DNA from: Takakia lepidozioides
Taxonomy: Eukaryota; Plantae; Bryophyta
Length of the DNA: 64,000 nt
Assembly (NCBI GenBank): GCA_030704615.1
Contig: CM060734.1
Span: 56,854,001 to 56,918,000 of the forward strand
Direction: 5' to 3'
Position numbers and translations under genes: made by a program. Numbering within the stretch: position 1 is the first letter of the stretch; each line of letters starts with the position of its first letter. The notes beneath the pieces are model-generated. The model did not search any database. It saw only the letters and a program-made list of their open reading frames with translations, and was not told the DNA's origin. Shown here piece by piece: positions 2,370 to 43,802 of the stretch.

Positions 2370-2935
2370 ATTTTAATGCGCGGAGTGTTTTTTGAGTGTT
2401 TTTGAGGCAATGAGAGCTAAATTGTACACAAACAATTAAGAATTAAAACCATTTGTTACAAAAATGGCGAAACCTCGACACAGCTACTGGTATATCTGCA
2501 AATGGAAAAGTCTGCGACGTCCATGAAGCCGAAGCCTCAGGAGTTTATACGACTAGGGTACCTGTAAGGAGCAGCAGTTGAAGGCGTGCGATTTCAGTCG
2601 TCCGTTTGAACATCTAGGGGCCGATTATACGACTACAGACAACGGTCTGCCTTTTCCCTCACCTCAACATCCGATCGCAATTCAAAGTGAAGGCAAGCAA
2701 TGAGTGTGGCCTTAAAAACGCCCGATGGCTGTGCTTTAAACACACGGTTGATAGTAGTCTCGCAATATGCCAGGTAGAAATCTCCATGTTGTTCCAATGT
2801 AGTTTCATGAGGACGCTGGAGGCGTGGAGCACACTTGCTCTTGGTTATGAGAGAGAGAGAAGACTCCGGCCGAGACCGGCATAACTAAGAGTCACTTTGC
2901 CTTGCAGCTACTGCCCTTTTTCAGGGGAGGGCCCC

Positions 2936-4272
2936 TGACGAGCCTTGGTTGCGCGCGGCCAGGGTGACGGCATACTAGCCTAGGGGGTCGTGACAAGTTG
3001 CGGTGTAGGTTGGGCTCAACGAACCGCCTACCCGGCTGCGGTAAGTGCAGGGGTCCGTGGCAGCTATGGACGGATCTAGATAGTCTAACTTCCTACCGGC
3101 AAAGCAAAGCTTAACAACTCTACTTCACAGGGCGATTTGCGTTTCCTAGTCTTACGTTTTGTTTATGGGTTTTCTACGTCTTTAATCGTAATTGCCTTCC
3201 AAGTCTTTGTTTATTACTACTTCCTACATGCCTGGACTCCGAACACGCTTATAGCCGGGACGAACCTTCAAATCCCTTCACCAAACGAATCCCGAGCCCA
3301 GGGAGACGGGGATCATCTATCTCCCGCCCAATGCCCCCCCCCCCCCCCTAAATCCCGAGGTGGATGAGTGTCCTACCTCCTAGGAAGGGACCGGATCCGC
3401 TTTCCCAAGTCAGTCTCTCCTGCTTGGAGCGATCCCAAAATGCCACCTCAATGGTCAGTCCATCGGGTGAATGATAACAATGCCAACCTCCTGGTAATTC
3501 TCGATGATAACAATGGCCGTTCCTTGGCCCAAGGCCCCCCAATGGCCGGGTACTTGACTTCGAATATCCTCAACAGAAGGGGGCGATACCGCCATTAAAT
3601 TTTGCATTTCAAAGTTAAGGGGGTCCGGATAAAACCCCTTAATAAAGGCGAATTATCTTGCTAAATAATAAAGACAAATCATTAAAATATTCCTACAAAT
3701 GCATGAAATCCGTAGAAATAGAGAATCATTGTAGGATGCTGGAGCTAACTAAATTACCCTCAAGGTACTAGGGGAACACCCTTTTATGCCGGGAGCGTTG
3801 AGGAACCGCTCTCCACTTGGGAGCGCCCCTAAATTCCTACACCAAACCACTCAAGAACTCATTAGCAACTTAAACCATCACCGGGCCAGGATGAATGAAA
3901 TCAGTCGCCCAGCAGTTTCTCATCTGCTCGCCACCCTGGTGTGTAAACAATGATTAAACATTCAGTGGGTCCCAGGGTCCATTCCCTGTGCCTCTTCCAC
4001 CTACTTCCAATATAATCTGATTAATTTATGCAGGCAACCAGCCTCGAACGAAGTTGAAACATGTCATCTTCTACCTGTAACCCCAGCAGGGATTCTCTCA
4101 TCCCTGTCTCTGGGCTCTCTCTCTCTCTGCCTGTGGCATCTACCCGTGAGCCGTGCTTTCACAAACCCCGCAATACATATCAAACTGATGGCCTCGCTGG
4201 GGCCTATCCAATGGTTCCAGCCATTTCTTATCCTTTGCTGAAACACGCCCTTATTCTCATGCAAGAAGAATA
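2936..4272 (+). mobile_element. Truncated 3' LTR of a large LTR retrotransposon (same family as solo LTR 21866-25427)
   Basis: Starts TGACGAGCC after the purine tract AGGGGAGGG (PPT-like, ~2923-2931). Colinear with 21866-~23218 until interrupted at 4273 by another LTR. Confidence 0.8.
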
Positions 4273-4853
4273 TGTCGTGCGCATACATATCGTTACACAA
4301 CTACATCGCTGTCCAAAACCACACAACACATGTGCATACCAAACACTAGTCCACCACTAGCCCACCACTGGGTTGCCACTAGCCACCACTAGTGCAGCCA
4401 CTAGTCCAACCACTAGGCTGCCACTAGTCCATCACAATGATAAGGAAAAGAATGATACAAGCACACAAGCTCTCTCAAACTCACATACTTGCACATGAAA
4501 ACATCACTCATATATTAAGTCGAGCCAAGTGCACCCCACGCCATGGGGAATCCACACTACGGCGCCATAGTTAGATGCGGTGAGGCTCAACTCGAGAAAG
4601 ATGAGCCCACCGCGATCTGCCGTGAAGATAATAACGTCAGGTGCCCAAACATGTATTGGCCCTTGGATTGACACTTGGGTCAATCCCAAATGTCAATATA
4701 TAAAAGCTAGCTATTTCCTGGCTAACTTCACACTAGTGGTAAAATAACTTGACAGCTGTCGTGCGCATACATATCGCTACACAACTACATCGCTGTCCAA
4801 AACCACACAACACATGTGCACACCAAACACTAATCTATCACTAGTCCATCATA
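4273..4853 (-). repeat. 3' LTR (581 bp) of the DNMT-Gypsy, with internal terminal direct repeats 4273-4436 and 4757-4853
   Basis: Follows the PPT (~4854-4864) on the minus strand, ends ...CACGACA, TATA-like run near 4697-4703. The two end blocks are near-identical; block 4273-4436 has extra CCACTAG units. Confidence 0.85.
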
Positions 4854-5113
4854 ATCGCCCCCCTAGCTGGCGCTTAGGTCCCTCTAAGTCCAGGTAGCTA
4901 CAAGATGTGATAGTGGCCATAGCCTCACAAAGTCCCCCACCACTGTCCCTACTACACTCAAACTCAATAGATCAAGAGGCCGGGTACAAGAGTTGCCCTA
5001 TCGTTAGTCGCCGTCTTGCAACCTGTGAACTTGAGCCTGAGATCTCGGGTATTGACTCCTATGAGCTTGGCCTCCCATGTCTTGTTAGCTATCACTAGTC
5101 ATATCCACTGCCA

Positions 5114-5262
5114 CTATCCCAAGCAGTGTGGACATAACCAATCTCCATCAGGAACCCTTTCAAGAGGTGGTATCAAGCATCCCATGTGCCAACCTCGTGA
5201 GCATCGATCACGCACCAGCATAGTGGCGGCATCTTGAGCATGCCCACATAGCATGCAGCGCA
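5114..5262 (-). pseudogene. PHD finger at integrase C-terminus (frameshifted)
   Basis: CMLC-x9-(R)DRC-x4-HMGC-x-PPLERVPDGDWLCPHC is a C4HC3 PHD with one Cys>Arg change. The copy at 27.9-28.05 kb retains that Cys. Confidence 0.88.
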
Positions 5263-5295: not shown

Positions 5296-6975
5296 TCATC
5301 CCATCCACATGTGGAAGGTGACATGGCGCACAATTGCGCACATGGTCCTTCCATACCATGCCATCTCGACCCTCCAGAATCGACCCTCCAGAATCAACAG
5401 TCCTGAAGGCAACACCTCCCTGACCCTTAGAATCACACGTCCTGCTGTGATATCCAAGGTCGTAGGCGCTGTCTGCTGTAGATACACATAGTCCCCAGGG
5501 TGGAAACGCCGAACACCTGGCCGATATCCCCCTCCACGTATAGTGACATATCTCAATGTGTTTCGGTGTTGGGCAATAGCAAGGTTCTCAAAAGCCATAG
5601 GCATGACCCTCTTGAACAACTCTGCCCACTGGGCACATGCTTGTGTCCACAAATCCAGATCATCAAGGTTGAGGACTACTGTAGCCTCCCTGCGAATAGA
5701 CGCAGACAATTCTGGCTCTCGGCCAAAGAGAAGAAAATATGGTGAGAAGGAGGCAAGTGATGCTTGCTTGCTAAACCTGTAGCCCATGGCTAACCAAGGT
5801 ACTTGAAGATCCCAATCTCCTAGGTGTCCCTTTTGCAAGCCATACTTGCTCAAACCCCTCTTCACCGTCTGCACCACTCTCTCTGTCAAGCCATCGGCCT
5901 CAGGATGATCCCGAGAAGTGGTACGGTGGTCTATCAAGGCTTTATCACACAAAGCCTGAAACTCCCCCAAGAACTCTCTCCCTTGGTCCATGAGCACCTC
6001 AGCTGGAGCACCGAATCGGCTAAGCACACGATCCAGGAATGCATACGCAGCCCCCTCACTAGCCTTGTCAGGCAATATAACCAACTCAATCCACTTGGAG
6101 AAGTGCTCTACCATCACCAACACATATCTGTGGTGACGCATCGTCAATGGCAACAGCCCTGCGAAGTCAAAACTCCACCTGTAGCCCAATCCCATGATGG
6201 GTAATGGATGCAACTGTGGTGTAGAGGCGTTGAATGAAGCACGCACCCTGTCACACACCATGCACCTAGCCACGAACTGTTGCACCTCTGTGTGCATACC
6301 ACGCCACCAATACTGCCCCTGCAGTAAACTATGAGTGCGTCGCACTCCAAAATGCCCTAACTCCTTATGGGCATGCCGCACTAACCATGCACGCTGTGTT
6401 GGGTGAGGCACGATCCTCACCTGACCATCCTCCCATACTCGAAGCAGGTGTATCCCCTCCCACTTGAACCTCTTGGCTCGTTGTAGGATCCGATCCCTCT
6501 CCTTGGCAGTCACACTAGCTGCCGTGTCTCCAGTGCGGAGGTAGTCCAACACAACCGAATCCTCATGTATATCTTTGGCACCACCTGGCTTATCACTAGC
6601 CTCAGGATCCTCAGACACTCCGTCTACAGTCATCCTTGTTGTAGGTCCAATCTGACCTCCCGATGTCAAGATACACAAAAATGCAGATGCATGCCATCCC
6701 GACACCATCTCCTCGTCCATCTCACCATGCCACCGAGCTCCAGTGTCATCATGCTGGCTCGTGCATGGATTGCGACTCAATCCATCCGTATCCCTATTGA
6801 CCAAACCCGGTCGATGCACAACCTGAAAGTCATACTCCTGGAGTATAAGTGCCCAACGTGCAAGCTTCCCCGTAAGCTTGTCTGACTTCATCAACCACTT
6901 GAGTGGCTGGTGATCCGTGACAAGGGTGAAAAGATTGCCGTATAGATAGCACCTGAAGTGTGCCATGGCCCACAC
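5296..6975 (-). CDS. Gypsy RNase H C-terminus + integrase (pol fragment)
   Basis: TDHQPLKWL...LARWAL, zinc-binding HAHKELGHFG...CMVC, catalytic FDFAG / MDQGREF / GLTER. Confidence 0.95.
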   Translation of the reverse strand: MWAMAHFRCYLYGNLFTLVTDHQPLKWLMKSDKLTGKLARWALILQEYDFQVVHRPGLVNRDTDGLSRNPCTSQHDDTGARWHGEMDEEMVSGWHASAFLCILTSGGQIGPTTRMTVDGVSEDPEASDKPGGAKDIHEDSVVLDYLRTGDTAASVTAKERDRILQRAKRFKWEGIHLLRVWEDGQVRIVPHPTQRAWLVRHAHKELGHFGVRRTHSLLQGQYWWRGMHTEVQQFVARCMVCDRVRASFNASTPQLHPLPIMGLGYRWSFDFAGLLPLTMRHHRYVLVMVEHFSKWIELVILPDKASEGAAYAFLDRVLSRFGAPAEVLMDQGREFLGEFQALCDKALIDHRTTSRDHPEADGLTERVVQTVKRGLSKYGLQKGHLGDWDLQVPWLAMGYRFSKQASLASFSPYFLLFGREPELSASIRREATVVLNLDDLDLWTQACAQWAELFKRVMPMAFENLAIAQHRNTLRYVTIRGGGYRPGVRRFHPGDYVYLQQTAPTTLDITAGRVILRVREVLPSGLLILEGRFWRVEMAWYGRTMCAIVRHVTFHMWMG

Positions 6976-7014
6976 TGCAGCTAAGCACTCCCCCTCATAC
7001 GAGCTATACTTAGA

Positions 7015-8133
7015 CTATGCAACGTTATTCGAACGGCTAGCATAAGCCACTATGAACTCTCTTCCCTCATCATCCACATGTGTGAGCACTGCTCCAAGCC
7101 CCAACATGCTCCAATTTGTATGCAGCTGAAAGGGACGCCCCCTGATGGGTCGTCTCAAGATGGGCGCCGAGGTCAACCTCGCCTTGAGCTCCTGAAAAGC
7201 TCGTTCTTGCTCATCTTCCCACTGCCACTCCTGATCTACCTTGGTCAGCTTGGTTAGAGCCTTTGCAATAGCGCTAAATACCTTGACAAACCGTCTATAG
7301 TAGTTTGCCAACCCCATTGAAAGCTCGAACTCGGCTCACATCCGTGGGGCGTGGAATCTGTGCGATGGCCTCTACCTTAGTCTGCTGCACCCCCAATCCT
7401 CCAGGATATATCATGTGGCCCAGATACTCAATTTGGTTGTGGAAGAACTTGCACTTCCCCGGATATAATTTCAATCCGTGCGCTCTCAAACGCTCAAACA
7501 CCACCTGAAGGTATATCTCATGCTCCTCCACCGTAGCACTAAAGATGATGATGTCATCTATGTAGCACCGAGCAAAGTCCACCCCTGCTAGAATCCTGTC
7601 CATGACTCTCTGAAACTCTGCAGGAGCATTCTTAAGCCTGAATGGTAAGAACTGCCACTGATATAGGCAATCCTTTCCGTGCTCATTGATCCCCCAGACT
7701 GCCGTCGTCTGCTTGTCCGCCTCCTTGATCGGCAACTAGTGATATCCGGACCGCAAGTCCAACGTGCTAAAGACCTTGGCATGCCCAATGGCATCAAAGA
7801 TCTCCTTAGGTGTGGGCATGACATACTTATCGGACTTGGTCTAATGATTTATAGGCCGGTAATCACCGCACATACGTCTCTCCGTCCAATTGCCATAGAC
7901 ATCCTTCTTCATCACCCTACTTGTAACAGATCCACCAAGTCATAGGCCACCGTGGCTGAAGCATACTCTCCACCAGAGAGCTCCACCAAACCAGCCTCCC
8001 AGAGATCTTGAGTCCTCATCTGAATCAAAGACCTCTCCATGTCACTGTATCTATAGGGTCTCCAAAAGATTGGCGTGTCCGTGGCCAACTCAATACGAAT
8101 TTCCTGACCCTTCAGTGCTCCCAAATCCTTCAA
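7015..8133 (-). pseudogene. Gypsy reverse transcriptase / RNase H (stops and frameshifts)
   Basis: PIFWRPYRYS, RRMCGDYR, DKYVMP, LPFRLKNAPAEFQR, YIDD (7553-7564), GLANYYRRFV, SAPILRRP. Confidence 0.95.
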
Positions 8134-8589
8134 ACTGAAGGCAAAGCAATTCCTATAAGCCCTCAGGAACCGCCGTATACGTCGTCTCTCTCCTCCAGTG
8201 ACAATGGGTCCAATGTCAAGCTCCCAATTGTCCTCCGTAACTGCAACCTTAAGTCCAGCAGACTTAGAGGTAGAGGACGCGTCCCGTGGTTGCTATGCCG
8301 CAACCTCATGAGTAGTACTCCCTGCCTGCTCAGTCAATGACAAGGCCTCATCCTGCCCCATCATCTCATCCTTGAGGACCTCCTCAACCCGAGAAGAATC
8401 CCCAACCTCATCCATCACAACCGCCTTGCCTACCAACTCCCTCTGAACCTCGAGCACCTCCCACGTGTGCCATGGATGTCTATACCCCGTGGTCCTCACC
8501 GGCTCGCCCCCACTCACTGCCTGTACCGTCTCAGTAGGCAAAGAGACTGTCAAGGGAAGTGAACTCTGCACTCTACGTTGCTCAGCCAT

Positions 8590-9545
8590 AGCCAAGCTGA
8601 TAATCCAGGTCAAGCAATTGAGATCCATCGCTTGCCCCAACACCTGACGACGTGATGCCTCAAAAAGAGAAGGCACCGCCGTGGTCCCAGTGGAAAAACC
8701 CATAGCCCGCTCTCGCTTGTCGGCATTAGGCTCCACTAACTGCTGCAACTGAGCATCCCACAGGAGGCCAGGTCCACTATCCCGGAAAGCATGTGATCCT
8801 GGGAAGTTGAGCAGTGTAGGTAGTGCTGCTCGTGGTCGACCCACTTTGTTGACCACTGCCAAAGGCAGACGGTCATCGTGTCTCACACGCTGAGACTGCC
8901 TCCCTGTGTCCAAGATGCTATCAATTGTGAGGGGAACTGGTCGCTCCACCCCATCAAATGCACGCTTAAGCAGTGCGGGTGGCATCAAGTTAGTCCACCA
9001 TAACCGTGCACGATGAGCCCGTGATCCCATTGCAGCTGCATCAGCAACACTACTGACCCAAGCCACAACCGGACTTGATGGACACTGGCCATCACCCTGG
9101 CCCAAGAATCGCCCATCAGTGGCACATTCTCCAAGATGTATGCTGGAGATATAGCCTGATGAAGCTGTAAGTGGCGCAAAACCCGCACCATCTCCTAAAA
9201 CAGACCCAACCTCGAGTCTCGCAGTCCATTGCCATATCCGGCTGATGAATGCCCTTGGCAGGGCCAACCTGCCACTACCAAATCAATGGAGCCAACCCGC
9301 TCCAAATCCTGCGCCCCCAGCAAAGAGATGTCTACTAGCAAGGCGTGCTGATATCCACGAACCGCAGACACCGGCAACAACTCAGGGTACTGCTGCACCA
9401 ACTGAGCAACATGATGGAGTAAGACGCATCGTGCAGTCTCATCCCTCTCCACATACAAGTAACGTTGTACTCGTACACCTGCCTATAGAACAACAGCCAA
9501 CTCGGTGCTGATCCCGCCAAACAAGTCCAGAAGGCAAATGCCTTC
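8590..9545 (-). pseudogene. C5 cytosine DNA methyltransferase domain inside pol
   Basis: Motif I LLDLFGG (~9513-9533), motif II YVE, motif IV IDLVVAGWPCQGHS (PCQ 9255-9263), motif VI YILENV (9123-9131), motif VIII AHRARLWW, motif IX RERAMGF, motif X LGQAMD (8623-8640). Two in-frame TAG stops (9483, 9195) and one frameshift near 9045. Confidence 0.93.
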
Positions 9546-10097
9546 ATCCGGACACTGCCACACGATCGGTGTGGTGTCCAATGGTGACAACTGAGGTGGT
9601 CCTGGTGCAATCACCGCACTGTCCTCCTCTCCTGACAGTACAAAAGCCTCTACCCAGGCTTGTTGCACACGCCAATCAGCAACCCGCTGCAAATCCTTGC
9701 TCGAGCCCCACAATGGAGTGTGAGCAACCATGGTAGGCAACTCCGCCATACTATACATGTCATCCCGCTCTCCCGGAGGTGACACATTCTCTGAATGAGT
9801 GTTGCTATCCAACAACTCTCCAGGCCAAGTCACTGCAGCTGTGAATGCTGCTAGTGTTGGCATCTTGCATAGTTGGGCAAGTGCAACTCCTCGTATGAAC
9901 GTCACGGGAAGCTGCACATGCCGGCCCTCCCCTGACTGCCATCCAGGCCTATATGAAGCTGACTCCTCCTAAAAATCCAGGATGAAGCCCATGGGTTACA
10001 ACACTGCCCCACCAACAAAGATATCGTATGAGACCGCGTCTGTCACAATGGCCTTGGCTCTCATCACTGAGCCATCTGTAGGATGATCCGGCTGTAG

Positions 10098-10412
10098 TCA
10101 GATAGCCAACTCATGCCGTGTCATGCCCCGAGCCTGCTCTGATCCTCCCAGAGATGTCTGCATCTGGAAAGGGCACGGCTCTATATCCGCCTCCGTGAGG
10201 CCCAAGCCTGCAATAGCAGCTCTGCCCAGCATCAATGGCTGAGCTCCCGAGTCCAACAAGACCCGCAGTGGCCGGTACCTCTTGTTTGCCGGTCCACTCA
10301 AACAGAAAATGTCATCCTGGTTGTCTAACATGACAACTCCAGGTGTCACCATGGCGCGCTCAATGGCTGGCCTAGCTGAAGCTCCATCAACCTGGCAGCT
10401 GCAGCTTGCCAT
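10098..10412 (-). pseudogene. Retroviral-type aspartic protease
   Basis: RVLLDSGAQPLMLG (DSG 10245-10253). The downstream YDIFVGG half-site follows an in-frame stop. Confidence 0.85.
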
Positions 10413-10688
10413 GGCGCCGCCGTGGCAGTCTTGACCCTCACATCGGAGGATCCCTCCGGCACTACACCTCCCACTATCTCCGCAGAAGATGAAGTAACCT
10501 CCCCGCTCTCACAGAGTGTAGCTGCCAGCCTGAACACCTCAGCTGGTCTTACCCCCGGCGTCGCAATCATGGTAGCCGAGAACAATGGAGCCTGACACAT
10601 AGCTGTGGCCGCCCCTACTTCCACATGTTTGTTTCTGTTTGTTTCCCTTGCCTTTGGGTTGATGCAACTCTCGTGCATTCCTTTGCAG

Positions 10689-13523
10689 CAAGACATTGCA
10701 GATGCAGAAGAGCGTGACAAACTGGAATACTACAGCTCTACCCCGGAGGAGAGAAGGACAGCAAAGGGGGTTGAGAGTCACATCCAGAAAGAGATGACGG
10801 CCACAAGAAGGACTATTATGAGTGTTTTTGTTAAGCAGTTGAGAATTGCCGACCCATCATTCGGACCGCAGTTTCTTCAAGAGGTGAAAAACCATTACAA
10901 CAAGCCAGGCAAGCCGGAGATGGCCCAGGAGATGTTACATAGGTTGTCTACCGCCGTTGTGTCTTCAGAACAGAAGGTGAAGTGGCTACAAATATGGAAC
11001 TCCGATCCCACTGTTAGGGATACCCACATGTTCCTTAGGCCGGAGAAAGAGAAGAAGACCCAGCATGTCATTCCTGTCAGTGACAATGTGTTGGACACAT
11101 GGCTTCACAAGGCCACTTACTGGAGCCAGGTATGATGTCCTTTACTGTGCCATTTTCTTTTCGTTTTTTCTGTCATTCTCTTTCCATGTTACATTGGCTG
11201 TGATTGTTTTTGGGTTCATTCTTGCATTCAAATTGTTTTGTAGTTGGAGGAAAGGGCCTGGTCGGTTCTACATACGCAGCTGGCTGACTATGGGATCACC
11301 ATGACAGCACCGAAGGTCTCATTCTAAGCATACATGAGGAAATGGAGAGCCACAGTGTGGCAATCTTGTTTCTTCAGAGAGTTCAGCAAGGAGGGTGGCA
11401 TCAGTCAAACAAATGAGCTTGACCAGCAAGAGAAAGGAGAGGAAGCCTGGAAACGATGCATTTACAGGTGCGAAATGGGTGCTTCTTTGTTTTGCAAATT
11501 CTCCATCCAACCTGTTTTGGGCTGGCTCATATGAGTTTGCGGTGCCGCACACTCATTTGTTCTATCTGTGTGTAGTAACACCAACGTGCACACCCTGGGC
11601 CCTTCAGGCTATTTTGTGTGCGGTGGTTGCAGTGTACTGTGCCGCATACTCTTTTAGGGGGTCTTCGTGATGTGGTGGAAAAGCTGGGAGACAATAATTG
11701 CATTGCATAATGAGGCTGTCTCTGTTCCTGCAGGTACATAAAGTATGTTCTCATGGCAGAGAACTGCTTGTACAAACATCCTGATTTCGTGGACCTTTGG
11801 CTTGTCCCTGCTGGCAACCAGACCATATTTACTACGGGGATCTTGCATGACTGGGGCCCAGACCATCTTTCGGCTTGTGGTTGGTATTTGGATTGCCCTG
11901 CTTCTGAGACCCCAGCTCAGGAGGTGTCTTTGAGGAGAGAGAATGAGCGTATAGCAGCCACCGCCGCAGCAGCCGACCTCGACATTCATGATAGAAATTT
12001 GAGGACTCTTGCAGAGAAGGAGCCTCCCGCTCAGGATACCCCGGGTAGAGGTAGAAAGGCAAAGGGAAAGGATGTTGCTGGTGGTGTGAGGAAAGGAAGG
12101 GGTAGGGGGAAGGGGGCACAAGGGCAGGTAGGTGGGCAGGGAAGTGTTCCAGATACTGGCCCTGTGGTGGATGTCCTGCAGACTCCACCGCATGGTAGGG
12201 GATCCGGGAGAAAGAACAAGGGGGTGGTTGATCCCAAGGACCCATACCATGCAGTGGAGCATCCCACGAGGGTCATTCGCCCTACCAGGTTGGAGATGGC
12301 CAACGTCGGGTTCCTTACCATGATGGAGTCCAAGAAATCTGATTACCAGGGCGAGCCATCACCAGTGTGGGAGAGGATTGTGGAGTTCCTCGACACGGTG
12401 CGTGTTGTCTTTTGCTTCCTGTCTGTTGTGGGCATGGATCGTTTCAATCCTCTTGAGCATTCCATTGCATGCTTGTTTGCAGGCTAAAATGACCAAATCC
12501 GGGGTGAACGGGAAGGAGAAGCCATATGCAGCCGAACTCATCATCTTGGACATCCCTAATGGGTTGCCAGTCCCGGATGTCCCTCCATCGGGTGCTTGTT
12601 CAGGTTGGAATGCTTTTGATGAGCGCTACTGGCGGTGGGTTTTCTCCTTTTGCAATTTCTTTCTGTCCGATGCAGGTGTTTTGGTGCTCATCCAGTCCAT
12701 CGACCTTTGTTGTCGTCGTGCACTTGCCAGCTATTTGAAAGCCTCCGGTGTGAGGGTCCTGAAGACATGGAATTGTGTGAACATCATGTACCTGACGAAG
12801 GGGGATCATCCGGGAGAGATGGTAAATCTGCTTTCTTATTCCTCTTCTTGGTGGTTCTCGGGTGGAGTTGCATAAGTCGCTCAAATGAATATGTAGGGGC
12901 CTGGTTTTCAAGCTTCTTAGGTCCTTGTGGATGTCTTGTTCGCAGACTCGTTTGTTTGAAGCTGTTTGTCTCGTCCGAGTGCATCCACCTACGACTCCAG
13001 CCGTCATTAGGGAGTTCGCCATCACTCATGGGGGCAAGTTCATAGACGAGAGGACAGATCCTCCCACGGACTACGTGGACAACAACGTGTGCTTGCAAAG
13101 GGGGGATGGGGTTCCTTGGAGAGGGGCCAGGGAGAGGAGCCCGACTTTCATTCAAACGATTGTGGAGTGTTGCACCTACACAGACGCCAGAGTTCTGGAT
13201 TTGTCAATGGGCACAGGTTCGTCTCTTCAACATTCACATTTCATGAGGTTTGTTTGAGCTTGCACTTTCAGCACTTCCCACCGTTCCAAATGTGTCTTCA
13301 ATGTCTGTTTCCTTCATTTTATTCCACTGCAGGTGCTTCGTACCACGCTTGCAAGGCCAGTGCGCGACATCTCTTTGGGATTGAAGGGGATGCTGGGATC
13401 AAGAACCTCCTGATGGGTTTGGGTGGACACACTTCTCAAGTCATTCCGAAGCCCCTTCCCGGTGATATTGATACAGGGGAGACTTCTGACAAGGAGCTGG
13501 ATTCCGACTTTGCCTGCGAGTAA
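10689..13523 (+). pseudogene. Multi-exon gene with C-terminal beta-class N6-adenine/N4-cytosine DNA methyltransferase domain (5' end missing; one in-frame stop ~11325)
   Basis: GT-AG introns at 11130-11243, 11468-11733, 12398-12482, 12822-12945 and 13217-13332 join the ORFs in consistent phase. The spliced product has LIILDIPNG (motif IV, DPPY-like), then ERSPTFIQTIVECCT-DARVLDLSMGTGASYHACKASARHLFGIEGD (motifs X-I-II). Confidence 0.8.
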
Positions 13524-13739: not shown

Positions 13740-15090
13740 AAGAGGTGTTTCGTGGGACACTATCAGTATTCAGCAGGTGAGGTTCGTCCCACCCACCTTC
13801 GATGGGCCCATTGTCTTCGAGCTCTCCCCACCTCTCCGAGTTGGTGGCTTGGCTGGGCTAATGGCCGGAATGGATAAGAAACATGAACGAAAACAACAAA
13901 CATTCAAAACCGTGATCAGTTGACATTCAGGAGGACTGTGTGCAATGGCCACCTGAGGTGCGAGAACTTGAAATGCCATCATTTCCTCATGAGTGGTGTT
14001 CACAACCAAAGTGAGTGGGATGGTGTTGCCGAAAATCCATTCCAACCTGGCATACCTTCTTCTTATAGCAACACGTTCATGTGTAAATTCTGTAAAATGA
14101 CCCCACTATTCCTGGCTGTCTGCAACACTAGAATGTACTACATCATCCATCGCTGCAAGACAATGACCAGAGCCTGTGTGCACTTTGGATTTTACAAACA
14201 TCCCGTTTCTAAGGGTGATCATTACAAAGATTGTATTGAGACTATGTCCACATTGATAAGGGAAGAGTGTAGTGCCAATCCCACAGCAACCACATCTGCC
14301 ATTGCACTTGCAGCTAGCAAGACATTCTTAGAGAGTCACATTCTTCATGAGGGAGACTCACATGGGCGGAAATTGGACGGCCCAGCACTGGAAGTGGTGA
14401 TGGATAAATTCTCCACCTTGAGTTCACCTAACATTCGAAACCAAATCACTGCTTTCAGAATAGAATCCGGTTCCACGGGATACATGGACAACATAATGGA
14501 TTTGAAGCGAAGAAGCCGGTATGACTTCATCCAAGGCAGTGCTTTCTTAGGTCAGGGAGCTAAAAAGGTCTACCTTTTCAAAATGTCCAATTTGGGACAA
14601 GCGAGCGGTGTCGGCCTGGTGAAGAGGATGTAATATGGTGGAGATCTGCAGAATTGTTAGTTGATGTTCGATTACGTTAAGCAAGTAAAGGATTGGACAA
14701 CCATGGCTTGCCAAGTGTATGACCCAGTGTATGCACGGGTTATGACAATTGCAGTCTGTGACATGCAATCGGAGGATGCAGATTCCCAGGTTCTCATGTG
14801 GAACTCACTTACTGCTTGCATGAGGTCTCACGGTGTGCAATCCCCGAACTTTGTAGGCTTCATGGCCGACAGTGCCCAAGTGAATTTCAATGTTGTTCGT
14901 GTATTTGACACGAGGCGTGTATTTGACTCGGGGGACCCAAAAATCCCAATGCCAGGGAGAGAACGGATTTGTCTGTTTCACTGGACACGGTCCCTAGACA
15001 AGAATACAAAGTTTGACATAAAGGTCGAATTGCAGGATACACATTTGAATCTTTGCAAGCAGTACAAGAATGCAAGGGGTGTTATTCTGT
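13740..15090 (+). mobile_element. Mutator-like (MULE) DDE transposase with N-terminal GCM-type zinc domain, decayed and 3'-truncated
   Basis: CNGHLRCENLKC...CKFCK...C...RACVHFGFYKHP (GCM/WRKY-like zinc ligands). MFDYVK (first D, 14670), FMADSA (second D, 14868), CLFHW (MULE CxxH). Frameshift ~13915, stops at 14631 and 14658. Confidence 0.8.
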
Positions 15091-16696
15091 GAGCCCAGGA
15101 AACCGTGAGCCCAGCACAGGCTCACGCCACGTCAGCATGCATACAAGGCCTATTTCTGCGGGTGTCACCTATTACCGCGGGTTGATCAGCCATTTCCAGG
15201 GAATGCTGACTGGATGTGTTACATCCATTGTATCCATCATTTCTATCCATTGCATCCATGTAGACGTTATCAACATACCAAGCCCCTGCATTGGAATGTG
15301 CCTACGTCGCGAGCAGGTGCACACTCACATCATCCAAAGCGGATCCCTGCGAAATCTTTTCTTACTCACCACCCTTGCCAACATGCCAGGTATGTGCGGG
15401 AGCATCATGGATGCTCACCAGAATTGAGAATGCCTGAACGCTCTTTGATCACGTGGACTTTATCATGATGGATTTACCAAGCATTCTTCTAGCAGGAATG
15501 GTTTGGAGACCAACGAGCAAATGATGCGAGAATGATCCACCCGAACCAAAGACGTTTGTTTGTTTTTGCAATGCACACAAGCCTGTGAGCTCCGCAAAAC
15601 ACTAAATAGATTGAAGGAACAATCCGGGCAGTCCATGCAACCATCTCCAACGATAGTTTGTTCCCATGAATTTGCATCCCACGCACACATTGCAAACATG
15701 GCAACAAGTACACACAACCATCCCATTTCAAAATTGGCCCCGAATGAAAGCAAAAGAAAACTTCATATCAAGTGTCACAGTCATCAGAATCAGTATCGAC
15801 CTCCTGTGCTATATCATCCACAAAGATTCCGGCCCCAACACCACGTCTTCTACCACGGCCGTCAATGGTTGGACTGCGAGTGCCATGAATGGACATGCTT
15901 GCTGCGAGTGCCTCCGCATAGACATGAAGCACAAAGTGTATTGTCCTCGGTGCTAATCCTTGATCCCACGAAGAAATATATTCATGGCCTTCTACCTACA
16001 TCCCCACCTGCGACCAGACATTCCCGACATGGCTTTCAACTTTGGGATGACACTGCATATTTCCTACACCTCATTGTCTTGGGACATAGAAGTTGGAGGC
16101 TGGGGAGGCTCAATTTCCGATACGTCCTCCTACAAGGAATCAAAAAGCTCCACTACAGTGCTAGAGGTCCAACTCTTGTTTGACCTTAATGTCACGGAAG
16201 TCCTGCAGTACAACAGAAGTTGCAGTTCCCGACGTAACAATGGAGCCAGTGGATTGTTGTCGCGGAGCCCCGAGCACCCGGTATCTTCCCGCATCAACTC
16301 TCCACTCACATCTTCCTGCAAAATCAAGTGGACACTGGAAAAGGGTACTGTTGACATTCCCGCCTTCCCCATATATCTCTTTCTCCACAACGAGAGAGCC
16401 AAGGTCCAGTTTAAATTTGGTCGCAAGGACATGCTCCTTAACAATTACAAAACCAATATCATCCGGAGACAACGCAAAGGGAAGTGTTTCGCCGAGGGAG
16501 AAGAATATTGGGCCAGGGACGAAGCCATGACTGGCCCTCGAAGCACACGGAAGATCTAACACAGAATGCGACCGTGTGTCGATCAATTTTTCGGATCATA
16601 ATTTAGAATAGCACATTTTATGTACAATACTATATATTTTATGAAGTTTAGTACGAAATCATAGTAAGAAATCATAAATAAAATGGAATTCTAGCA

Positions 16697-21160: not shown

Positions 21161-21865
21161 TTCTCCCACTGCTCATCCTCATCTTTGTTTCACAGTTTTG
21201 CCTGTTTCTCCCTTGAATGACCTGATAAGTGTTAGTATAGATTAGTTTTCCATGTCTGATATGTACCTTAGGCTGTAGCAACAATTAATGGTTTGGAAAG
21301 AAGCTACATAGAAAGTTCTGAAACAGGGCCAAACAATATTGTTAATTAATTCCAATTTGTCCCAGAGACCTTTAAAACTACTGCAGATGCAAATAAATAC
21401 ACATGATACAACATACCAGACAGTTACTCCTCGACATCAGAGTGACTATAAATGGTTGAGGTATCAGGTACTGATGCCCCTGTTGTTCATATAGTCAATT
21501 TCAAACCAGCCCCTGGCATACTTTACCAGCATTGAAAAAACCATACAGGGGTCTTGGTTATGCAAATATATCCAGGTGGTTTGGCATCAAAATCTGCATT
21601 AGATGCTAAGCCATGAAAGGGGTTTTTTTATAAAAAAAAACAATGGTACCCAAAGAGTTGCAGTACAAATACTTATGCAGCACTGATATGAATCATATCA
21701 GTATTGATATGTATTATATCAGAAAAAAAAATCACCTTCATACTACCTGGGTACATCAAAGAGTACCATAACCACTCATGCTAGTGTCATTCTGCATCAG
21801 TATATGGTATCATATGTGAACATGGGGGCAGAATACACAAAGGTGTAGACATTGATGTGTGTGTC

Positions 21866-24800
21866 TGACGAGCCCTGGTCGTGCACGGCCAGGGTGATGG
21901 CATACTAGCATATGGGGTCGTGGCAAGTTGCGGTGTAGGTTGGGCTCAACGAACCGCCTACCCAGCTGCGGTAAGTGCAGGGGTCCGTGGCAGCTATGGA
22001 TGGATCTAAACAGTCTAACTTCCTACTGGCAAAGCAAAGCTTAACAACTCCATTTCACAGGGCGATTTGCGTTTCCTAGTCCTACGTTTTGTTTATGGGT
22101 TTTCTACGTCTTTAATCGTAATTGCCTTCCAAGTCTTTGTTTATTACTACTTCCTACATGCCTGGACTCCCAACACGCTTATAGCCGGGACGAACCTTCA
22201 AATCCCTTCACAAAATGAATCCCGAGCCTAGGGAGACGGGGATCATCCATCTCCCGCCCAATGCCCCCCCCCCCCTAAATCCCGAGGTGGATTAGTTTCC
22301 TACCTCTTAGGAAGGGACCGGATCCGCTTTCCCAAGTCAGTTTCCCGTGCTTAGAGCGATCCAAGTTTCAACCTCAATGGTCAGTCCATCGGGTAAATGA
22401 TAACAATTCAAACCTCTATGTAATTCCCGAGATCTAATAAAACAATGGCCGTTCCTTGGCCCAAGGCCTCCCCAGCGGCCGGGTACTTCACTTCAAATAT
22501 CCTCGGCGGAAGGGGGCGACACCTTTCTTAGAACTTCCGTTTTTAAGTTAAGGGGGTCCAGATAAAACCCCTTATTAAAGGCGAATTGCCCTGCGGAATA
22601 ATAAAGAACAAATCATTAAAACCGTCTTACAAATGCATGAAATTTGTAGAAATAGAGAATCATCGTAGGATTCTGGAGCTAACTAAATTACCCTCAAGGT
22701 ACCAATGGAACGCCCTTTATGTCGGGAGCATTGGGGAACCGCTCTCCACTTGGGAGCGCCCCTAAATTCCTATACCAAACCAATCAATAACGCATTAGCA
22801 ACTTAAACAATCACCGGGCCGGGATGAATGAAATCTGCCGCCCATCAGTTTCTCATCTAATCGTCACCATGTTGTGTAAACAATGATTAAACATTCAGTG
22901 GGTCCCAGGGTCCATTCCCTGTGCCTCTTCCATCTACTTCCAATATAATCTAATTAATTTATGCAAGCAACCAGCCTAGAATGAAGTTGGAACATGTCAT
23001 CTTCTACTTTGTGAAACCCCTACCAGGAATTATCTCCTCCTTGTCTCTGGGCTCTCTCTCTCTCTCTGCCTCTGGCATCCACCTGTGAGCCGTGCTTTCA
23101 CAAGCCCCGAAATACATATCAAACTGATGGCCTCAATGGGGCCTATCCAATGGTTCCAACCATTTCTTATCATTTGCTAAAACACGCCTTCATTCCCATG
23201 CCACATGCAAGAAAAACACCATGAATAGTGCACAAAAAATCAAAGGCATAGGAGAAAACCCCCCTTAAAATACCCGTACCAAGGACCAACAGTCCCTGGC
23301 GGGGTCCGTCGTAATATCTAGCGGTTAAAACCGAGACCCTGCGGCCAGCGTTACGTGGCGCGGCGTGACTGGCCCGCCGCCGGTGCGGGTCCAATGGGTA
23401 ATAGCAAGCTCCGTCGTCTCTACCGCTCATGTCATACCTACGCGGGCCCAGCTATGGCGCCTGGTGCTGCCACGCAGTGTACCAGCAACCCGTACTTTGC
23501 TCAAGGGGTCAACTCCTCCCACGGGGGGAAGGCTGCACCACCCATGTTAGATGCGCCTTTCCATGGCGATTCTAGGCAACCTCCTTGGTTGACCTCCAGC
23601 CTAGAGGCGCCGACACTTTAGTGTTGGGCTCTGCCTTTTTTGGCAGCTCTCTACAAAATAGCTTGACCACTTATAAAGCTAGTTAGCACTGCCTCCCATG
23701 GTCCTCTATGGCCAGGGGGCTTATGAACATAGATATAAACTTAATAATATGGAAATTTTGGTGATAGCTTCGCCGTCTCATGCAATATGGCCGTTGCCAC
23801 TAAGCTAGAAAGGGAAATTTGACAAGAGCTTCGCCACTTCATGCAAGCTCGCCCTCTCCTTAAACATAATAATGGACATCTACCATCACTTCCATGACGT
23901 AATTGGGTTAGATTCCTAAGGCCCTGTCTCCTAGGGCTTCAAACCTGTGCTCTTCACACATGCACATAGAGATGCACACACATCCTCTTTGAAAGAGGGT
24001 TAGTTTTTATAGATTTCTAGCAAACAATGCTATAAGGTCTCTTTTTGGGACAAGCTTGAACAACAAATGAAACAAATGAATTCAAAGGTCAAGATAATAT
24101 GGTAAGTCACCTTCTGAAACAAATGGTTCTTGGGATGTACTAAATCGCTCGGTAGAATGGTACTCAAATCTGGTCCTCCTCCGGCACTCCTACTCGTCCT
24201 CAAGTCTCCCACTTCATGGAGCGCTTCCTCTACTTCTTGCCTCAAATGGCCAGAAGGCCTTGAGCTAGGACTATTCTGCTCTCACTATGCTTGCTTCTAC
24301 TACTAAAGAGCCACAAGCTCAACTCTCTAGGATCTAGCTCCCTCAAGCTCAAAACTAACTAGACAAACAAGAGGCCAAAACAAAGAAATGAGACTAGATG
24401 AAGAACAAGAGGAGCCTGCTCTTCTTTTGTTGTGTTTTTGGGGCCTCTTAAACTAGTGAAGGATAGTCTTAAACCATTATTTCCTACATGAATCTATAAT
24501 TTAAAAACAATAGAACACCATAAAATAATAATCATGGATGGAAAACCTTGGTGTTAATGATAAATCTGGTTTTTCATCCATCCAATGGATGACCAATTGG
24601 CGCTAGGTTGTCTTCTCATCCCTCCAGCTTGCAGGTCGAATTTCAAATTTTCATCCATTGGATGAACTAGAATTCCATTTAATCGCCTTTCGCAACTACC
24701 TCCGGCTTGATAATTTGATGCCATCTGTCATCACCTCCAAAAATCCCTAAACTTATTGAAAAATTATAATTAGATGCCCCGTAGCTGCCCGTAAAATCTC

Positions 24801-27531: not shown

Positions 27532-28844
<1,313 letters not shown>

Positions 28845-29519
28845 GGTCAATCAATTCCCAACCCTTCTTTACCCATTACTATGCAGGCTGTTTTGTCCAC
28901 TAACTTCAAAACTTTACATTGTCAGTTCAACAGGCAATCTGAAGGCAAACACATCAGCCTTCTCATGGCTCAATGTCATGTCCATGAGTTAAGCTTTCCC
29001 TGCATTATAGATACAAGATGCACAATGTCACCATTCCTTTAAATATAGTAAGAGTGCTTAGCCTCAAACTCAGCCCTGCTTCTGGTCTAGACATGTTGAT
29101 TGCAGATGGATCCAATATGAGCCTCTTGGCCTGGTCACTGTTCCTATCAGAATTCACAAGAAAGAGGTGTTGTCATGCTGATCACTTGCATAGTTACTAT
29201 TGGGGATCAATTCTTGCTTGGCCTTGATTGGATGACTGGAGCTAGTGCAATTATCAACCTAGCAGACTACTCTCTTCGCTTTAAGAATGGTGAAGGACAT
29301 GAGATTGTAATTCCCCTGAAGACTGTGAAACTCAAAGCATGGGCTGCCACAACCAATCTTTCCAGAGTACAGGCCTTGGTACAAGAGGTAAAGCAGAATT
29401 CTTACTCCCACCTCTCTTGGACTGAATTTTATAATTTCCAGCCTGAACTCCAACTTTTGTATCAATGGCATGTTCATAGTGCTAGTGGCAGAACAAGAAT
29501 ACCCATAGCCATACCTAAA

Positions 29520-37650: not shown

Positions 37651-38239
37651 AATAGGGTTCTTGGGCCTTGCACTTCCCAATAGCTTTACACACAGCCATT
37701 TTGCGCCTAACACACATGTTATTTTAATGACTACAGTTGGCCCAAGACCAATCCAGAAGTAGCACAAATTGGCCCATGGCTTCTCTTCTTGGGCTCGGGC
37801 CCTAATGTAAAGTGGCCCTAAGTTCTTATATTATTTCTATTATCTTCATTTATCATGTTGCTGAGATAACTACTTGGCATACTTGTTGAATCCATTGTGT
37901 CACAAACCTAACTTCTTGCCAAGTTGATTTCAAATTGAGATATGAGATTGTAGTTTGAGATGGCGTGAAAGATAACTGTCCAACATGTGGGAAACGATTT
38001 GGAGACCAACTCATCAATGACTGGAAAAAATCTCTAACATTGAAATCCGAGAAAATCCAACCGAAATCTAGCCCACTACTACAAGTAGTGCTTCTGCACA
38101 AATCTGTTTTGATGCTTTGAAAACAGCTTAGAACAGAGGAGCAGTTAAGATCTTAAAGATTGGATAGCAAAGCTCTACGACTCACTCAACCCTCCGGCTG
38201 GGGTCTTCATCCTGTCAAAGTTACAAACTTACTAAACTT

Positions 38240-40264: not shown

Positions 40265-43200
40265 CTAAGACATAGGTGCAGTGGTTCCTCCAACTCCCAT
40301 CTTTCGCCCAAGCACAGCAAGCTGATCCAAAAACTCTCTTCCAGACAAAATTTCAGTGGTGCCATAGATAATATTTTTGGCAGGCTGTTGTCGTTGTGCA
40401 AATTCCTGCAGACTGCCATACTCAAGGTAATTGCCCCCACCAATCATAAACACAATGGCCTCCTTGAAGGGCCCCTTGAAACCTGGACTACCTTTAGGTG
40501 CTTTGGGATCAAAGAGAAGATATGATTCTGTGTCAGGCGCCAGTCTGACCTCCATCAAGCCCTCCACTGCTCTTGTGAGAGCCAACTGTCGCCCACCTGA
40601 CAGGAGATTTTTCACTCCAGCTGTCACGGCACTCAGGGCCTGCTCATAGATTTTCTCACCCCACACACCAAGGTTGCTTCGATTAGCAGCTTGTGCTGAA
40701 GAGAGTGGAATATTCAATGATTTTATTCTTTTCACATACAGAAAAGCAGAAAGATCCACCTCTGCTGCCCGGAGCACTGATTCCACAGCCTCCACCTCAG
40801 ATGGGGGTGTAGTTTCAACAGCCAACAAGTACACTACAGCAAGACGCAATTTGTCCTCCTTGGTGCCTTTCTCTTTGAGAGTTGCCAAAAGGGTTGTATT
40901 GACAACATTTCCTTTGGTCAACATATCATCCTCCATGGAGCAAAAACCATCAAGAAACCGGGCCTTAATCTCGCCTAATAGAGCAGTGGCAATGTTGGTG
41001 TGCTTGTCAATCATCCTTTTTCTCTCTGTCAGCTCTGGTAGTGAGTTGACAGCACTCATCAGATGCTTGGTGTTGCCCAATAGCTCCTGCTCATCAAAAT
41101 CTCCCTCTTTCCCACCCCCAGTCCTTCTATTGACCTCCTCAATATCCTGTTTGTACCTGGTCCATGACTTTGCAGTTAAACCCCATTGAATGACCCACAA
41201 GCAATCTCCAGTCTGTAAGTCTGGACCCGTCTTTTAAGATAAATTTCGGCTCATACACTGTCAATTGCTGTGCCTGGCAGCATAAACACAATTTGAATCC
41301 TTGAACAAGTGCCAGACTTCAATTAATATCCACACATCAGAAGACAGCAGTATGCAGACAAAAGAGAGACATGTACCTATTCAACTGGGTCTCAACTTCC
41401 TCTGCCACCCTTGGAAACGGAGCAGATGCATTGGCCACCCAAAAGGAATCCCCATCGTCCAGCTCATAGGATTTCCCTGCACCCTTCCCTCTCAAGGTGG
41501 GGGCGGCAACTTCTGACTGTACAGTAACCCGATTCAGTTTCATGCCCAGAACATCGTGCACCAGTGGACGGTAGCTCCATACGTGCTGCAATGCTATAGA
41601 AAGCTCAAAGTTTCGGTCGAAGAGACATAAGACTGGTCGCTGGATAGAGGTTCCAAAGTGCCCAGCTTCTGTGAAAAGGTTGTTTCTTGACACCAAGTGG
41701 TCCCTGAGACGAGTGTCGAGGACGGATGCAACCATCTCTGCTGGCCCACCTCTGGCACAAAGGAACATCAAGATTACAGTGTGATTGATGACAACTGACT
41801 TCTTGTGGTGAACGTCAATGACTTCTAGTTAGATCTGTAACAAAACACTCCCAGTGACATACTAGGGTTACATATAGATGGTAATTCTGGCCAAGAATGG
41901 CCACAAAAACACAGAAGAGTTTAGCAGGGTATAAACTCAAATAATTAGCATTGGTAATTACATCATGACAAGAGAAAAACATTGTGTAGAGGCCCGTGAC
42001 ACAATGCAAAATTCAAATTGCTCTCCTTCCTCTACAACGTCTCTGACCCGTTTCCTCTTTTAAACAAGCCTTAACTCCCCTTATTTCCTGATGTGGTCTA
42101 TGATTAATTACGAGACTTCGGTCACATACCTCGCACAGCGAATTACTGGAACAACCCCCAGTGTTGCAAGTACTGAGAAGAGCCCATTTGCAATGCTTTC
42201 TACCACAGCTTCCACATCTTGTTCTTGTGCAGCTGGGTCATTGAGCTGTACGTAAGTAAGGGGCTGAGCTAGAGAAAACATCCCATTCTCAAGAGTGACA
42301 AACTCAAGATATTGGTCAAAAACCCTAGCAACACGTTGAATGCAATTGGTCTTCAATGTACCCGCAGCAAGCTCCTCCAAGAGAGGCCGCGAGAGGGATG
42401 AAGCAAAGTTGAGATGAAAGCTTTCATAAACCCCACGTGACGTATCCAAGATTATTCTTTGGATGTTGGCCGGCGATGGTTGCACAAAATAGATGGCAGG
42501 AACGTCAGGGATATTTTGGCGTTCATTCTCCAGCATAAGATACAGAGTTATCCCATGCTTACGAAGGTCGTTGACCCGGATTAGTGGGGACAAAAGATCA
42601 CGGCAAAATCGATCCAGGATTAACACTTTGTAAACTTCCTCATCAGCTGTACCCCCACTTACTACTGGTTGATTCAGATTCAGCATCCGCACCACAGCAT
42701 CTGCACCCAGACAAAACAAATTTAAAGCAATTTTGTCCAGAAATCAATATTGACTTGATTGATGGAATTGACATACATCTGCGAGTAATGAAAGCTAAGT
42801 ATACTTGACATACTTAGAACCCTACAGTAGACAATGGCATTCCATATGGCAACTCGTGGAAGAACTTGATAGAAACCATTGCTTGAGTGACTTGTCAACT
42901 CCAACATTTGTTAACGAGTTATACAAAACATAAAATGTGGGGAGTGTGATGAATAGGCTAAGGCAGCTCAGAAACCCTAATGCTACAACCAGTTTTCCGA
43001 TTATTGCATGATGACTGATTTGAACATTCATGGCAATGTAGCTGGCAGTCACAAAAATGACAATCGGGGTATCGTGAGTAGCACGAAACCCTATATAAGG
43101 ACACCTTTGACAGCAAGGATTGTTTGATCCTGGCTGGATAAGTGGCTCACCACGGACCAGAGAATAGTAATCCAAGCACCCCCACATTGTAAGACCTACC

Positions 43201-43802
43201 CAAGCAGTTGCTACAATATACGCTCGAGCTTGATGACTTCATCCAGGAGTTTGATAGTTGGTGTGATTTGCAGCAAATGTGCAATCCACAATTGTTTACG
43301 CCTCCACACGGATTCCGAATGGTTACCAATGGTTACCAATGTCGACAAAGTAGACAACAACGGTTACAGATCTACTGTAATTCCATTGGAGTTCAAGTGT
43401 ACTCCAAACCTCGAACGACACCGACTGTTGCGTTCAAACCCCTGCAGCTGATGGAAAGCCCGTTGCCTAAAGCTCGGAACGATTTCAAGATGTTCACTGA
43501 CACAGAAGATAGAGTGCGTGGTCTCCAGTAGACGTAAACCAGTGCACACTGGCCGAAATGTAGATTCACATGGCAGTCGAGGGTGGGCGTATGAAATGAT
43601 AGTGACTATTGCACCCAAAAAGCAAGTGTGAGCCTAACCAGATTTTCGATGCTACGGTCGACAAGAAGGGTGGGGAGAATGAAAGATGAAGACAAAGATG
43701 GTGGAAAAAGACAGGATCACGCCTGCTATTGAGAAAGGGAGAGGGACATTGAGACACGATCCGGATCATACCCATCTGCTTCTGACGAAGGGAGAGCGCC
43801 AT
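40265..43802 (-). CDS. SLY1: Sec1/Munc18 family vesicle transport protein SLY1
   Basis: Exons 43772-43802, 42130-42700, 41377-41751, 40265-41156. MALSLRQKQ..RMLNLNQP, YKVLILDRF, DVPAIYFVQP, IDKHTNIAT, FMIGGGNYLEY. Confidence 0.95.
43195..43310 (+). mobile_element. Possible short retroelement gag-like relic in SLY1 intron 1
   Basis: LQYTLELDDFIQEFDSWCDLQQMCNPQLFTP looks like an isolated coding fragment. Family assignment is from recall only. Confidence 0.3.

Follow-up and report, generated by a model that had tools for sequence, protein, structure and literature searches.

A DNMT3-like cytosine methyltransferase domain in the Pol of a decayed Gypsy-order retrotransposon from a probable moss, and its relatives in bryophytes

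The nearest described counterpart of the element reported here is KnitGypsy-Dnmt3, which is presented in PMC5890265 (de Mendoza et al. 2018) as an acquisition of the Klebsormidium nitens lineage with DIRS-like repeats; the survey table in the available part of that paper has no entry for Marchantia or Sphagnum, and its seed-free land plants are Physcomitrella and Selaginella only. The same work describes SymbioDIRS-Dnmt3 from Symbiodinium, and reports that the DNMT3 domains of DIRS elements from Symbiodinium, expressed in yeast, carry out de novo methylation at CG and that the Klebsormidium domain produced no methylation there, a result called inconclusive by its authors. EpiLTRs of Cymbomonas and Euglena (bioRxiv 10.64898/2026.05.21.726589) are elements of the LTR class that likewise combine a C5 methyltransferase with a chromatin reader; the accessible text of this preprint speaks of "streptophytes (Gypsy-DNMT3)" with no land plant named, a wording that could extend beyond Klebsormidium. 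As for land plants, the available text of PMC6338049 says that transposons encoding a methylase do not occur in land plants such as tracheophytes, and builds an argument on that absence. Two further points of reference are PpDNMT3b, a bryophyte host DNMT3 with de novo activity on CG and CHH (Yaari et al. 2019, PMC6453930, accessible part), and the REXdb lineages of Ty3/Gypsy, such as Phygy and Tcn1 (Neumann et al. 2019, PMC6317226), which have the order PR-RT-RH-INT and for which the available text mentions no methyltransferase.

The stretch of DNA analysed here, called the window throughout, is 64 kb long and contains on its minus strand a retrotransposon with a C5 cytosine methyltransferase domain in its pol (Table 1). 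This element is of the KnitGypsy-Dnmt3 kind and extends that kind to mosses and liverworts: as far as the available text of PMC5890265 describes it, both have an intronless DNMT3-related domain in a Gypsy Pol together with DIRS-like split direct repeats, of which the 5' repeat is visible only in relatives of the window copy. Unlike KnitGypsy-Dnmt3, the window element has a land plant as its host, its domain is only 34-41% identical, its family greatly exceeds in abundance the 33 DNMT genes reported for Klebsormidium, and it carries a PHD finger, a term absent from the accessible text of that paper. SymbioDIRS-Dnmt3 shares the DNMT3-type domain in Pol and the split direct repeats, but it is a DIRS element with a tyrosine recombinase, whereas the window element has a DDE integrase and its family makes 4-bp target duplications. 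In EpiLTRs, according to the available preprint text, the DNMT is sister to DNMT4 and occurs with a DAM domain and a chromodomain, whereas the window element has a DNMT3-like domain and a PHD finger, and Pfam returned no DAM domain in its pol. The order of the REXdb lineages is also that of the window element, in which no chromodomain was found. PpDNMT3b belongs to the same DNMT3 class and has the same unrearranged motif order, but it is a host gene outside any retroelement.

Table 1. Positions within the window of the parts of the methyltransferase-bearing element, of other remains of its family, and of the host gene used for placement
Feature	Position	Strand	Evidence or remark
End of gag-protease linker	10271..10620	minus	homology to relatives
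Aspartic protease, with stops	9990..10270	minus	LLDSGA 10242-10259; weak Pfam match
DNMT3-like C5 cytosine methyltransferase domain in pol	8590..9545	minus	motifs, PF00145, conservation, profile
Reverse transcriptase (RT), with stops and frame changes	7313..8154	minus	YIDDI 7550-7564, Pfam
RNase H (RH)	6805..7317	minus	Pfam, RT-RH tree
DDE integrase with H2C2 zinc finger (rve)	5400..6400	minus	Pfam
PHD finger, end of pol	5123..5257	minus	Pfam E 4.6e-9
Polypurine tract (PPT), directly before repeat B1	4858..4870	minus	
Repeat B1	4757..4854	minus	ends CA, then CA-GC-TG palindromic junction with A2
Repeat A2	4438..4754	minus	starts TG, ends CA; about 317 nt (310-339 nt in relatives)
Repeat B2, with short-unit expansion	4273..4437	minus	ends CA, which is the 3' end of the element
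Second, truncated family copy (integrase end, PHD, PPT, B-A-B repeats)	27532..28845	plus	
Gag scrap of the DNMT family	43220..43303	plus	75% identical to Marchantia proteins across 28 aa
Host SLY1 (Sec1-family) exons	40268..42743	minus	used to place the host

The initial annotation had described C5 methyltransferase motifs in canonical order inside pol, interrupted by only two TAG stops and one frameshift, and this description proved correct, with the motifs distributed over two minus-strand frames. Motifs I, II, IV, and VI share one frame (LDLFGG at 9513-9530, YVERD at 9441-9455, GWPCQ at 9255-9269, and LENV at 9123-9134) and motifs VIII, IX, and X lie in another (HRAR at 9004-9015, RERAMG at 8698-8715, and VLGQAMD at 8623-8643); the order I, IV, VI, VIII, IX, X is that of the C5 cytosine methyltransferases, and the catalytic Cys, ENV, and RxR are all present. 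Within the domain, the breaks are TAG stops at 9483-9485 and 9195-9197 and a frame change near 9043. The HMM check proposed at the same time returned PF00145 with an E of 5.7e-6 on the stop-free piece 9195-9482 and of 5.3e-11 on the N half with X at the stops (43 bits, the cut-off being 22); the C half alone had no Pfam match and is 61-75% identical to the corresponding part of close relatives. The window thus contains a real C5 methyltransferase domain and, as described below, this domain is a fixed part of a multi-copy family.

The domain is situated, as had been suggested, between protease and RT, with a protease motif upstream (Pfam E 0.008, below the cut-off) and the RT downstream. Homology to relatives ends near 10620, so that gag and the 5' repeat have been lost from the window copy, which abuts another repeat at about 10620-10690. 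Additional stops and frame changes occur in pol outside the methyltransferase domain, and the window copy is dead. Its naming as a Ty3/Gypsy retrotransposon stands as regards the order protease-RT-RNase H-DDE integrase and the PPT, and fails as regards the LTR pair, which is absent and replaced by split direct repeats: instead of two full LTRs at the ends, the relatives L029 and L047 have the layout A...B-A-B and both window copies have PPT-B-A-B. The element is therefore filed here as Gypsy-order with permuted repeats and not as a canonical LTR element. Relatives show the TG...CA termini, PPT, and 4-5 bp target duplication of Ty3/Gypsy elements, the window itself showing the PPT and the 3' CA only; a tyrosine recombinase without target duplication, the mark of DIRS/Ngaro elements, was not found, and an rve integrase and 4-bp duplications are present instead. 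The viral contigs searched gave no match.

Two other structures in the window were considered as parts of the element and rejected. A 1.33-kb direct repeat (2935-4262 and 21865-23201, 89.6% identical, starting with TG) was examined as an LTR pair; no fitting primer site, PPT, or target duplication was found by eye, its depth is 30-100 times lower than that of pol, and the DNMT element has its own end at 4273. This repeat is part of another repeat family. The plus-strand genes at 10.7-15.1 kb do not qualify as cargo, with a depth of about 1e5 and less compared with 5-10e5, and they are missing from the layout of complete relatives. One of them, at 10690-13520, has several exons and belongs to a separate repeat family (depth about 1e5); by eye we take it to have an amino-methyltransferase layout, with a DPPY-like motif near 12520 followed by a SAM-binding motif near 13200. 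Searches of Pfam, NCBIfam, PDB, phages, and proteins gave no match for this gene, and the atlas led to methyltransferase families at 0.88-0.89 only; this place may hold a second mobile element that bears a methyltransferase. The other, at 13887-15092, is a frame rich in Cys and His that looks like a transposase; it has two stops and no Pfam match, and the depth is low at 13.9-14.4 kb. Elsewhere, the window includes an array of 100-200 bp units in which TTTAGGG-like runs are frequent (31330-32370) inside a decayed Gypsy element at 29.1-34 kb, a minus-strand chromovirus relic (36229-38000; integrase, SH3, chromodomain) with a CpG o/e of 0.88, i.e., much less depleted than its neighbours, and a minus-strand plastid chaperonin-60 beta gene (49600-53930), recognised by eye from its exons.

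Regarding the class of the enzyme, a 61-row profile of the family matched DNMT3A with an E of 1.6e-26, DRM with 4e-15, and HhaI with 9e-9. A structure model of the open relative P0003, which is 69% identical to the window domain, has a pLDDT of 93; its Foldseek match to DNMT3A has an E of 2e-18, and it aligns with DNMT3B at a Z of 29.0 (rmsd 2.6, 278 aligned residues), followed at lower Z by M.MpeI (25.5), DNMT1 (19.6), ZMET2 (18.3), and MET1 (17.0). DNMT3 is thereby the closest match in sequence and in fold, the fold being that modelled for P0003, and the motif order is without the rearrangement of the DRM type. Hence, by profile and by predicted fold, the methyltransferase is DNMT3-like; the DNMT trees discussed below were built without host DNMT3, MET1, CMT, or DRM sequences.

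The residues needed for catalysis are kept across the family: in 140 domains, whose selection by similarity favours conserved residues, the catalytic Cys is present in 138 (two gaps), the motif VI Glu in all 140, and each motif VIII Arg in 138. With pairs that are not independent and codons that tolerate breaks (open frames alone comprise 4 loci and 5 pairs), dN/dS between distant copies is 0.23 for DNMT (327 pairs, dS 1-2.5), compared with 0.33 for RT-RH, 0.30 for the protease, and 0.19 for the integrase, and it is 0.14 for the 22 unsaturated of 78 pairs with the window. Between close copies, within families, it rises to 0.5-0.6, a weaker constraint than the <0.2 given in the available text of PMC5890265. 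Taken with the finding that only 4/66 loci have one open DNMT frame, these within-family values indicate that most of the sampled copies are dead.

Relatives of the domain are numerous. The N half has 31 relatives among 1622 candidates, 35-72% identical, of which 12 are from Marchantia polymorpha, 3 from Calypogeia fissa, and 1 from Sphagnum, with 15 lacking a species name, and a profile search of 1.84 billion representatives returned 327 clusters at E<=1e-30, the best 150 of which were examined. According to home-made domain profiles, retroelement domains lie beside DNMT in 119 of 185 proteins, while the other 66, mostly short, have DNMT alone. Two domain orders were recognised, order A being protease-DNMT-RT, as in the window, and order B being RT-RH-DNMT-integrase-PHD, which was not found in the accessible text of the papers searched. 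In a FastTree phylogeny of 140 near-full domains (46 partial domains dropped, 38 without a flanking domain), 29/29 A and 73/73 B domains fall on opposite sides of one branch (97), and an RT-RH tree of 59 rows, with one outgroup and no reference Gypsy lineages, splits A from B in the same way. Species names could be assigned to 5 of 20 representatives, namely K. nitens GAQ93235 and three Closterium in A, and Scenedesmus in B. The order B proteins (P0032, P0033, P0277, P0385, and 69 more) make up a separate clade in the DNMT and RT trees, and their only species name, Scenedesmus sp. PABB004, is the one name behind a putatively chlorophyte-wide order B.

The window's order recurs in metagenomes as well: in 80 loci (the best 80 of 151 confirmed), the nearest downstream domain is RT in 61/61 and the nearest upstream domain is protease in 41/44, the full order from gag to PHD is present in 11, and 39 share 80% identity or more with named Sphagnum proteins. 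Same-order relatives come from Marchantia, Calypogeia, Sphagnum, Closterium, and Klebsormidium. In Marchantia, four gag-protease-DNMT polyproteins are annotated as hypothetical genes (Mp8g17980, Mp8g15430, Mp4g09160, and Mp6g11220, i.e., P0007, P0008, P0013, and P0025), and no paper on these gene ids was found in the literature searched. Some loci are rearranged: in L055, L058, and L062, DNMT-RT pieces lie opposite an inverted protease-DNMT piece, which suggests inverted or self-inserted copies, and in L020, L029, L047, L068, and L076 family copies adjoin other RT-integrase elements or lie within them, frequently sharing their orientation.

How abundant the family is can be gauged from a DNA run of the host species, which yielded 71,864 contigs on 2.8-16.7 kb. 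Over 4.7-10.7 kb, a span that takes in the DNMT, the summed depth is 4-10e5, and unique contigs stand at about 60; this summed contig depth, which is no copy number, is level across DNMT, RT, and integrase at ~10,000 times that of unique contigs. The DNMT family is very abundant in the host, and the DNMT is a fixed part of it. At the first stop of the domain, 34,141 of 35,363 depth units (97%) differ from the window, at the second 478,681 of 479,004 (99.9%), and 33 contigs diverge from the window at the frameshift; consequently, these breaks are private to the window copy. Contigs 93% alike over pol also occur in one run guessed to be RNA, which is no evidence of expression.

Turning to the ends, the arrangement PPT-B1-A2-B2 closes both window copies, and L029 and L047, which represent one insertion, read A1-gag-pol-PPT-B1-A2-B2. 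A 4-bp target duplication is present in 5/5 loci that have A1 and the outer 3' end (four independent insertions; A1 was located in 14 loci). The B1|A2 junction is the palindrome CA-GC-TG, and at A2|B2 the CA of A is followed directly by the sequence with which B1 begins after the PPT, a join seen in both window copies, in L010, L017, L029, and L047, and, with two changes, in L039. A two-LTR circle made from an LTR of composition B+A would carry such an A|B junction. Because the observed join agrees with this expectation, the integrase would have opened the circle at B|A, and we lean towards this circle-permuted route of integration. The B|A junction occurs at only 8/18 PPT sites, and in nine loci the element stops after a single B; one of these, L048, has a flank in common with the B-A-B locus L039, which suggests collapse or B-B recombination as the likely source of the B-alone ends. 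Furthermore, in 6/12 loci 8-11 nt of the sequence that follows A1 can pair with position 168-170 of A (0-9/200 in shuffles), a target ~31-33 nt below a TATA box; in the other 6/12 loci the complementarity lies elsewhere or at chance level, and A1 is absent from the window. Self-priming of the Tf1 type is the mechanism behind this reading of the complementarity, and the sequences suggest that it may be used here. Tcn1 elements are predicted to self-prime in the accessible text of PMC6317226.

That the host is a land plant, as first proposed, is upheld on other grounds: the PPR and F-box/kelch relics given as its basis are motifs seen by eye, with no Pfam match at E<=0.01 in 9/9 frames, and the placement comes instead from SLY1. 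An IQ-TREE phylogeny of the window with 31 of the 120 relatives listed, no named hornwort among them, sets the window inside the land plants (100/100) and with three JGI proteins at 100/99, apart from liverworts and vascular plants; two of the three JGI clusters contain Sphagnum and Physcomitrium proteins, and the window branches outside both (92/82). To judge from this gene tree, the host is most likely an early-branching moss. In a 34-row IQ-TREE phylogeny of the DNMT, which is unrooted and weak in its deep branches, the window falls in a 99/99 clade with bryophyte sequences, within which the order does not follow the host tree. GAQ93235 of K. nitens, a gag-protease-DNMT protein found by the family profile, is on the window's side of the tree of 140 domains, in line with the link to Klebsormidium elements made at the outset; we infer that it is a copy of KnitGypsy-Dnmt3, and with it the domain order of the published element. 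A lineage that is old in streptophytes and survived in bryophytes is part of the best explanation.

The explanation we consider reasonably probable is that the window holds a dead copy of an abundant Gypsy-order family of a moss, in whose working copies the DNMT methylates the element's own new cDNA. The DNMT, synthesised within Pol, would enter the particle together with RT; an RNA beginning in A would prime itself, Tf1-style, on the sequence just after A1, and RT would make a linear cDNA whose true LTR is B+A. The DNMT would then methylate this cDNA de novo, most likely at CG and perhaps at CHH, for which the activity of PpDNMT3b serves as the model, and the new copy would enter the genome already marked like host chromatin. 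Before that, the cDNA ends would join into a two-LTR circle, the DDE integrase would open it at the internal CA-GC-TG site and give A...B-A-B, and the PHD finger would read histone marks and pick the integration site. Methylation of the cDNA in cis by a Pol-borne enzyme is, on the sequences and the structure model, the somewhat favoured function.

Other accounts of these data differ in what they dispute. That the domain is a piece of a host gene captured only here, a nested insertion, or an artefact of assembly might be read from the broken window copy and its junction with another repeat; a single capture of this kind, absent from other copies, was named in the initial annotation as a result that would refute its reading. 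Instead, the same order appears in dozens of independent records from several genera and the depth is level across pol, which refutes this account and leaves it next to no probability. More serious, if less probable than the circle route, is an origin of the A...B-A-B ends without a two-LTR circle, in which the RNA would extend into B2 and template switches on the B-A junction would rebuild the linear cDNA ends. Such rebuilding of ends by template switching has been proposed for DIRS/Ngaro-type elements. The repeat layout is the same as that of the DIRS elements in the available text of PMC5890265, and TG/CA ends with 4-bp duplications would suit any linear DDE substrate; on the other hand, the PPT lies directly before B1, and B2 starts exactly where the PPT-primed strand starts and is joined to the CA of A, which is what the joining of B+A LTR cDNA ends predicts and favours the circle.

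The remaining two accounts concern history and function. Horizontal transfer from algae or among bryophytes, in place of descent from the streptophyte ancestor, is in our view the less likely origin of the bryophyte members, even though the RT-RH of the window and that of a Marchantia element are 79% identical, about as close as the host SLY1 (80-83% to liverworts), a Sphagnum-like DNMT clusters with Marchantia (98/92) and not with Calypogeia or the window moss, and no Physcomitrium or vascular-plant name is found among the 16 named matches. The bryophyte sequences nevertheless form their own clade and are only 34-44% identical to the algal domains, the dS values between window and loci approach or exceed saturation, and old paralogous lineages with losses explain the tree equally well. 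Transfer is, moreover, a question of history and would be compatible with methylation of the cDNA. As to function, the domain could be an active or binding module with another job, which protects or binds the RNA-DNA intermediate, acts in trans on insertion sites, or damps the element's own spread, options listed by de Mendoza et al. (PMC5890265). Conservation shows a function and not its target, the Klebsormidium domain had no activity in yeast (PMC5890265), and the CpG o/e of the element (0.53) shows no greater depletion than that of the window (0.49) or of a neighbouring Gypsy element (0.41), so that composition shows no sign of self-methylation; CpG/CHG composition was uninformative here. 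All catalytic residues are kept, however, the modelled fold is nearest the DNA-acting DNMT3 enzymes (Z 29.0, against 21-23 for the DNMT2 tRNA enzymes), and the constant fusion of the domain in Pol favours action in cis on the cDNA; another job for the domain thus appears less likely, and the methylation of new cDNA remains the preferred reading.

Regarding its status in the literature, no report of DNMT-bearing Gypsy elements in land plants was found in the texts searched, to the extent that these were available, and subscription papers, Repbase, or supplements may hold one; as the initial annotation had supposed, the occurrence does not appear to be catalogued there. The accessible text of PMC11982613, PMC8616336, PMC9033089, PMC12513842, PMC10952607, PMC6453930, 10.1101/2022.06.16.496473, and PMC6317226 makes no mention of such elements, and we judge it fairly probable that they are unreported in print for land plants. 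No vascular-plant member of the family was found here.

The broadest scenario, offered with considerable reserve and held to be the less probable outcome as a whole, would be a single capture of a DNMT3 by a green-lineage Gypsy clade, before or near the chlorophyte-streptophyte split, with the domain then occupying two positions (protease-DNMT-RT in streptophytes and RH-DNMT-integrase in chlorophytes), with pre-methylation of the cDNA and opening of the circle at an internal palindrome, and with survival in mosses and liverworts at copy numbers that would shape methylomes, missed by LTR-pair finders and hidden in Marchantia gene models. The permuted ends suggest that the DDE integrase acts here by a route uncommon for such enzymes, and they explain why pipelines that search for LTR pairs would miss the family. 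For annotators, copies of the family inflate the counts of "DNA methyltransferase genes" in bryophytes. Finally, DNMT Gypsy elements occur in mosses and in liverworts, the genetic model Marchantia among them, so that the question of why a retrotransposon carries its host's silencing enzyme may be studied in a plant for which mutants and methylomes exist.
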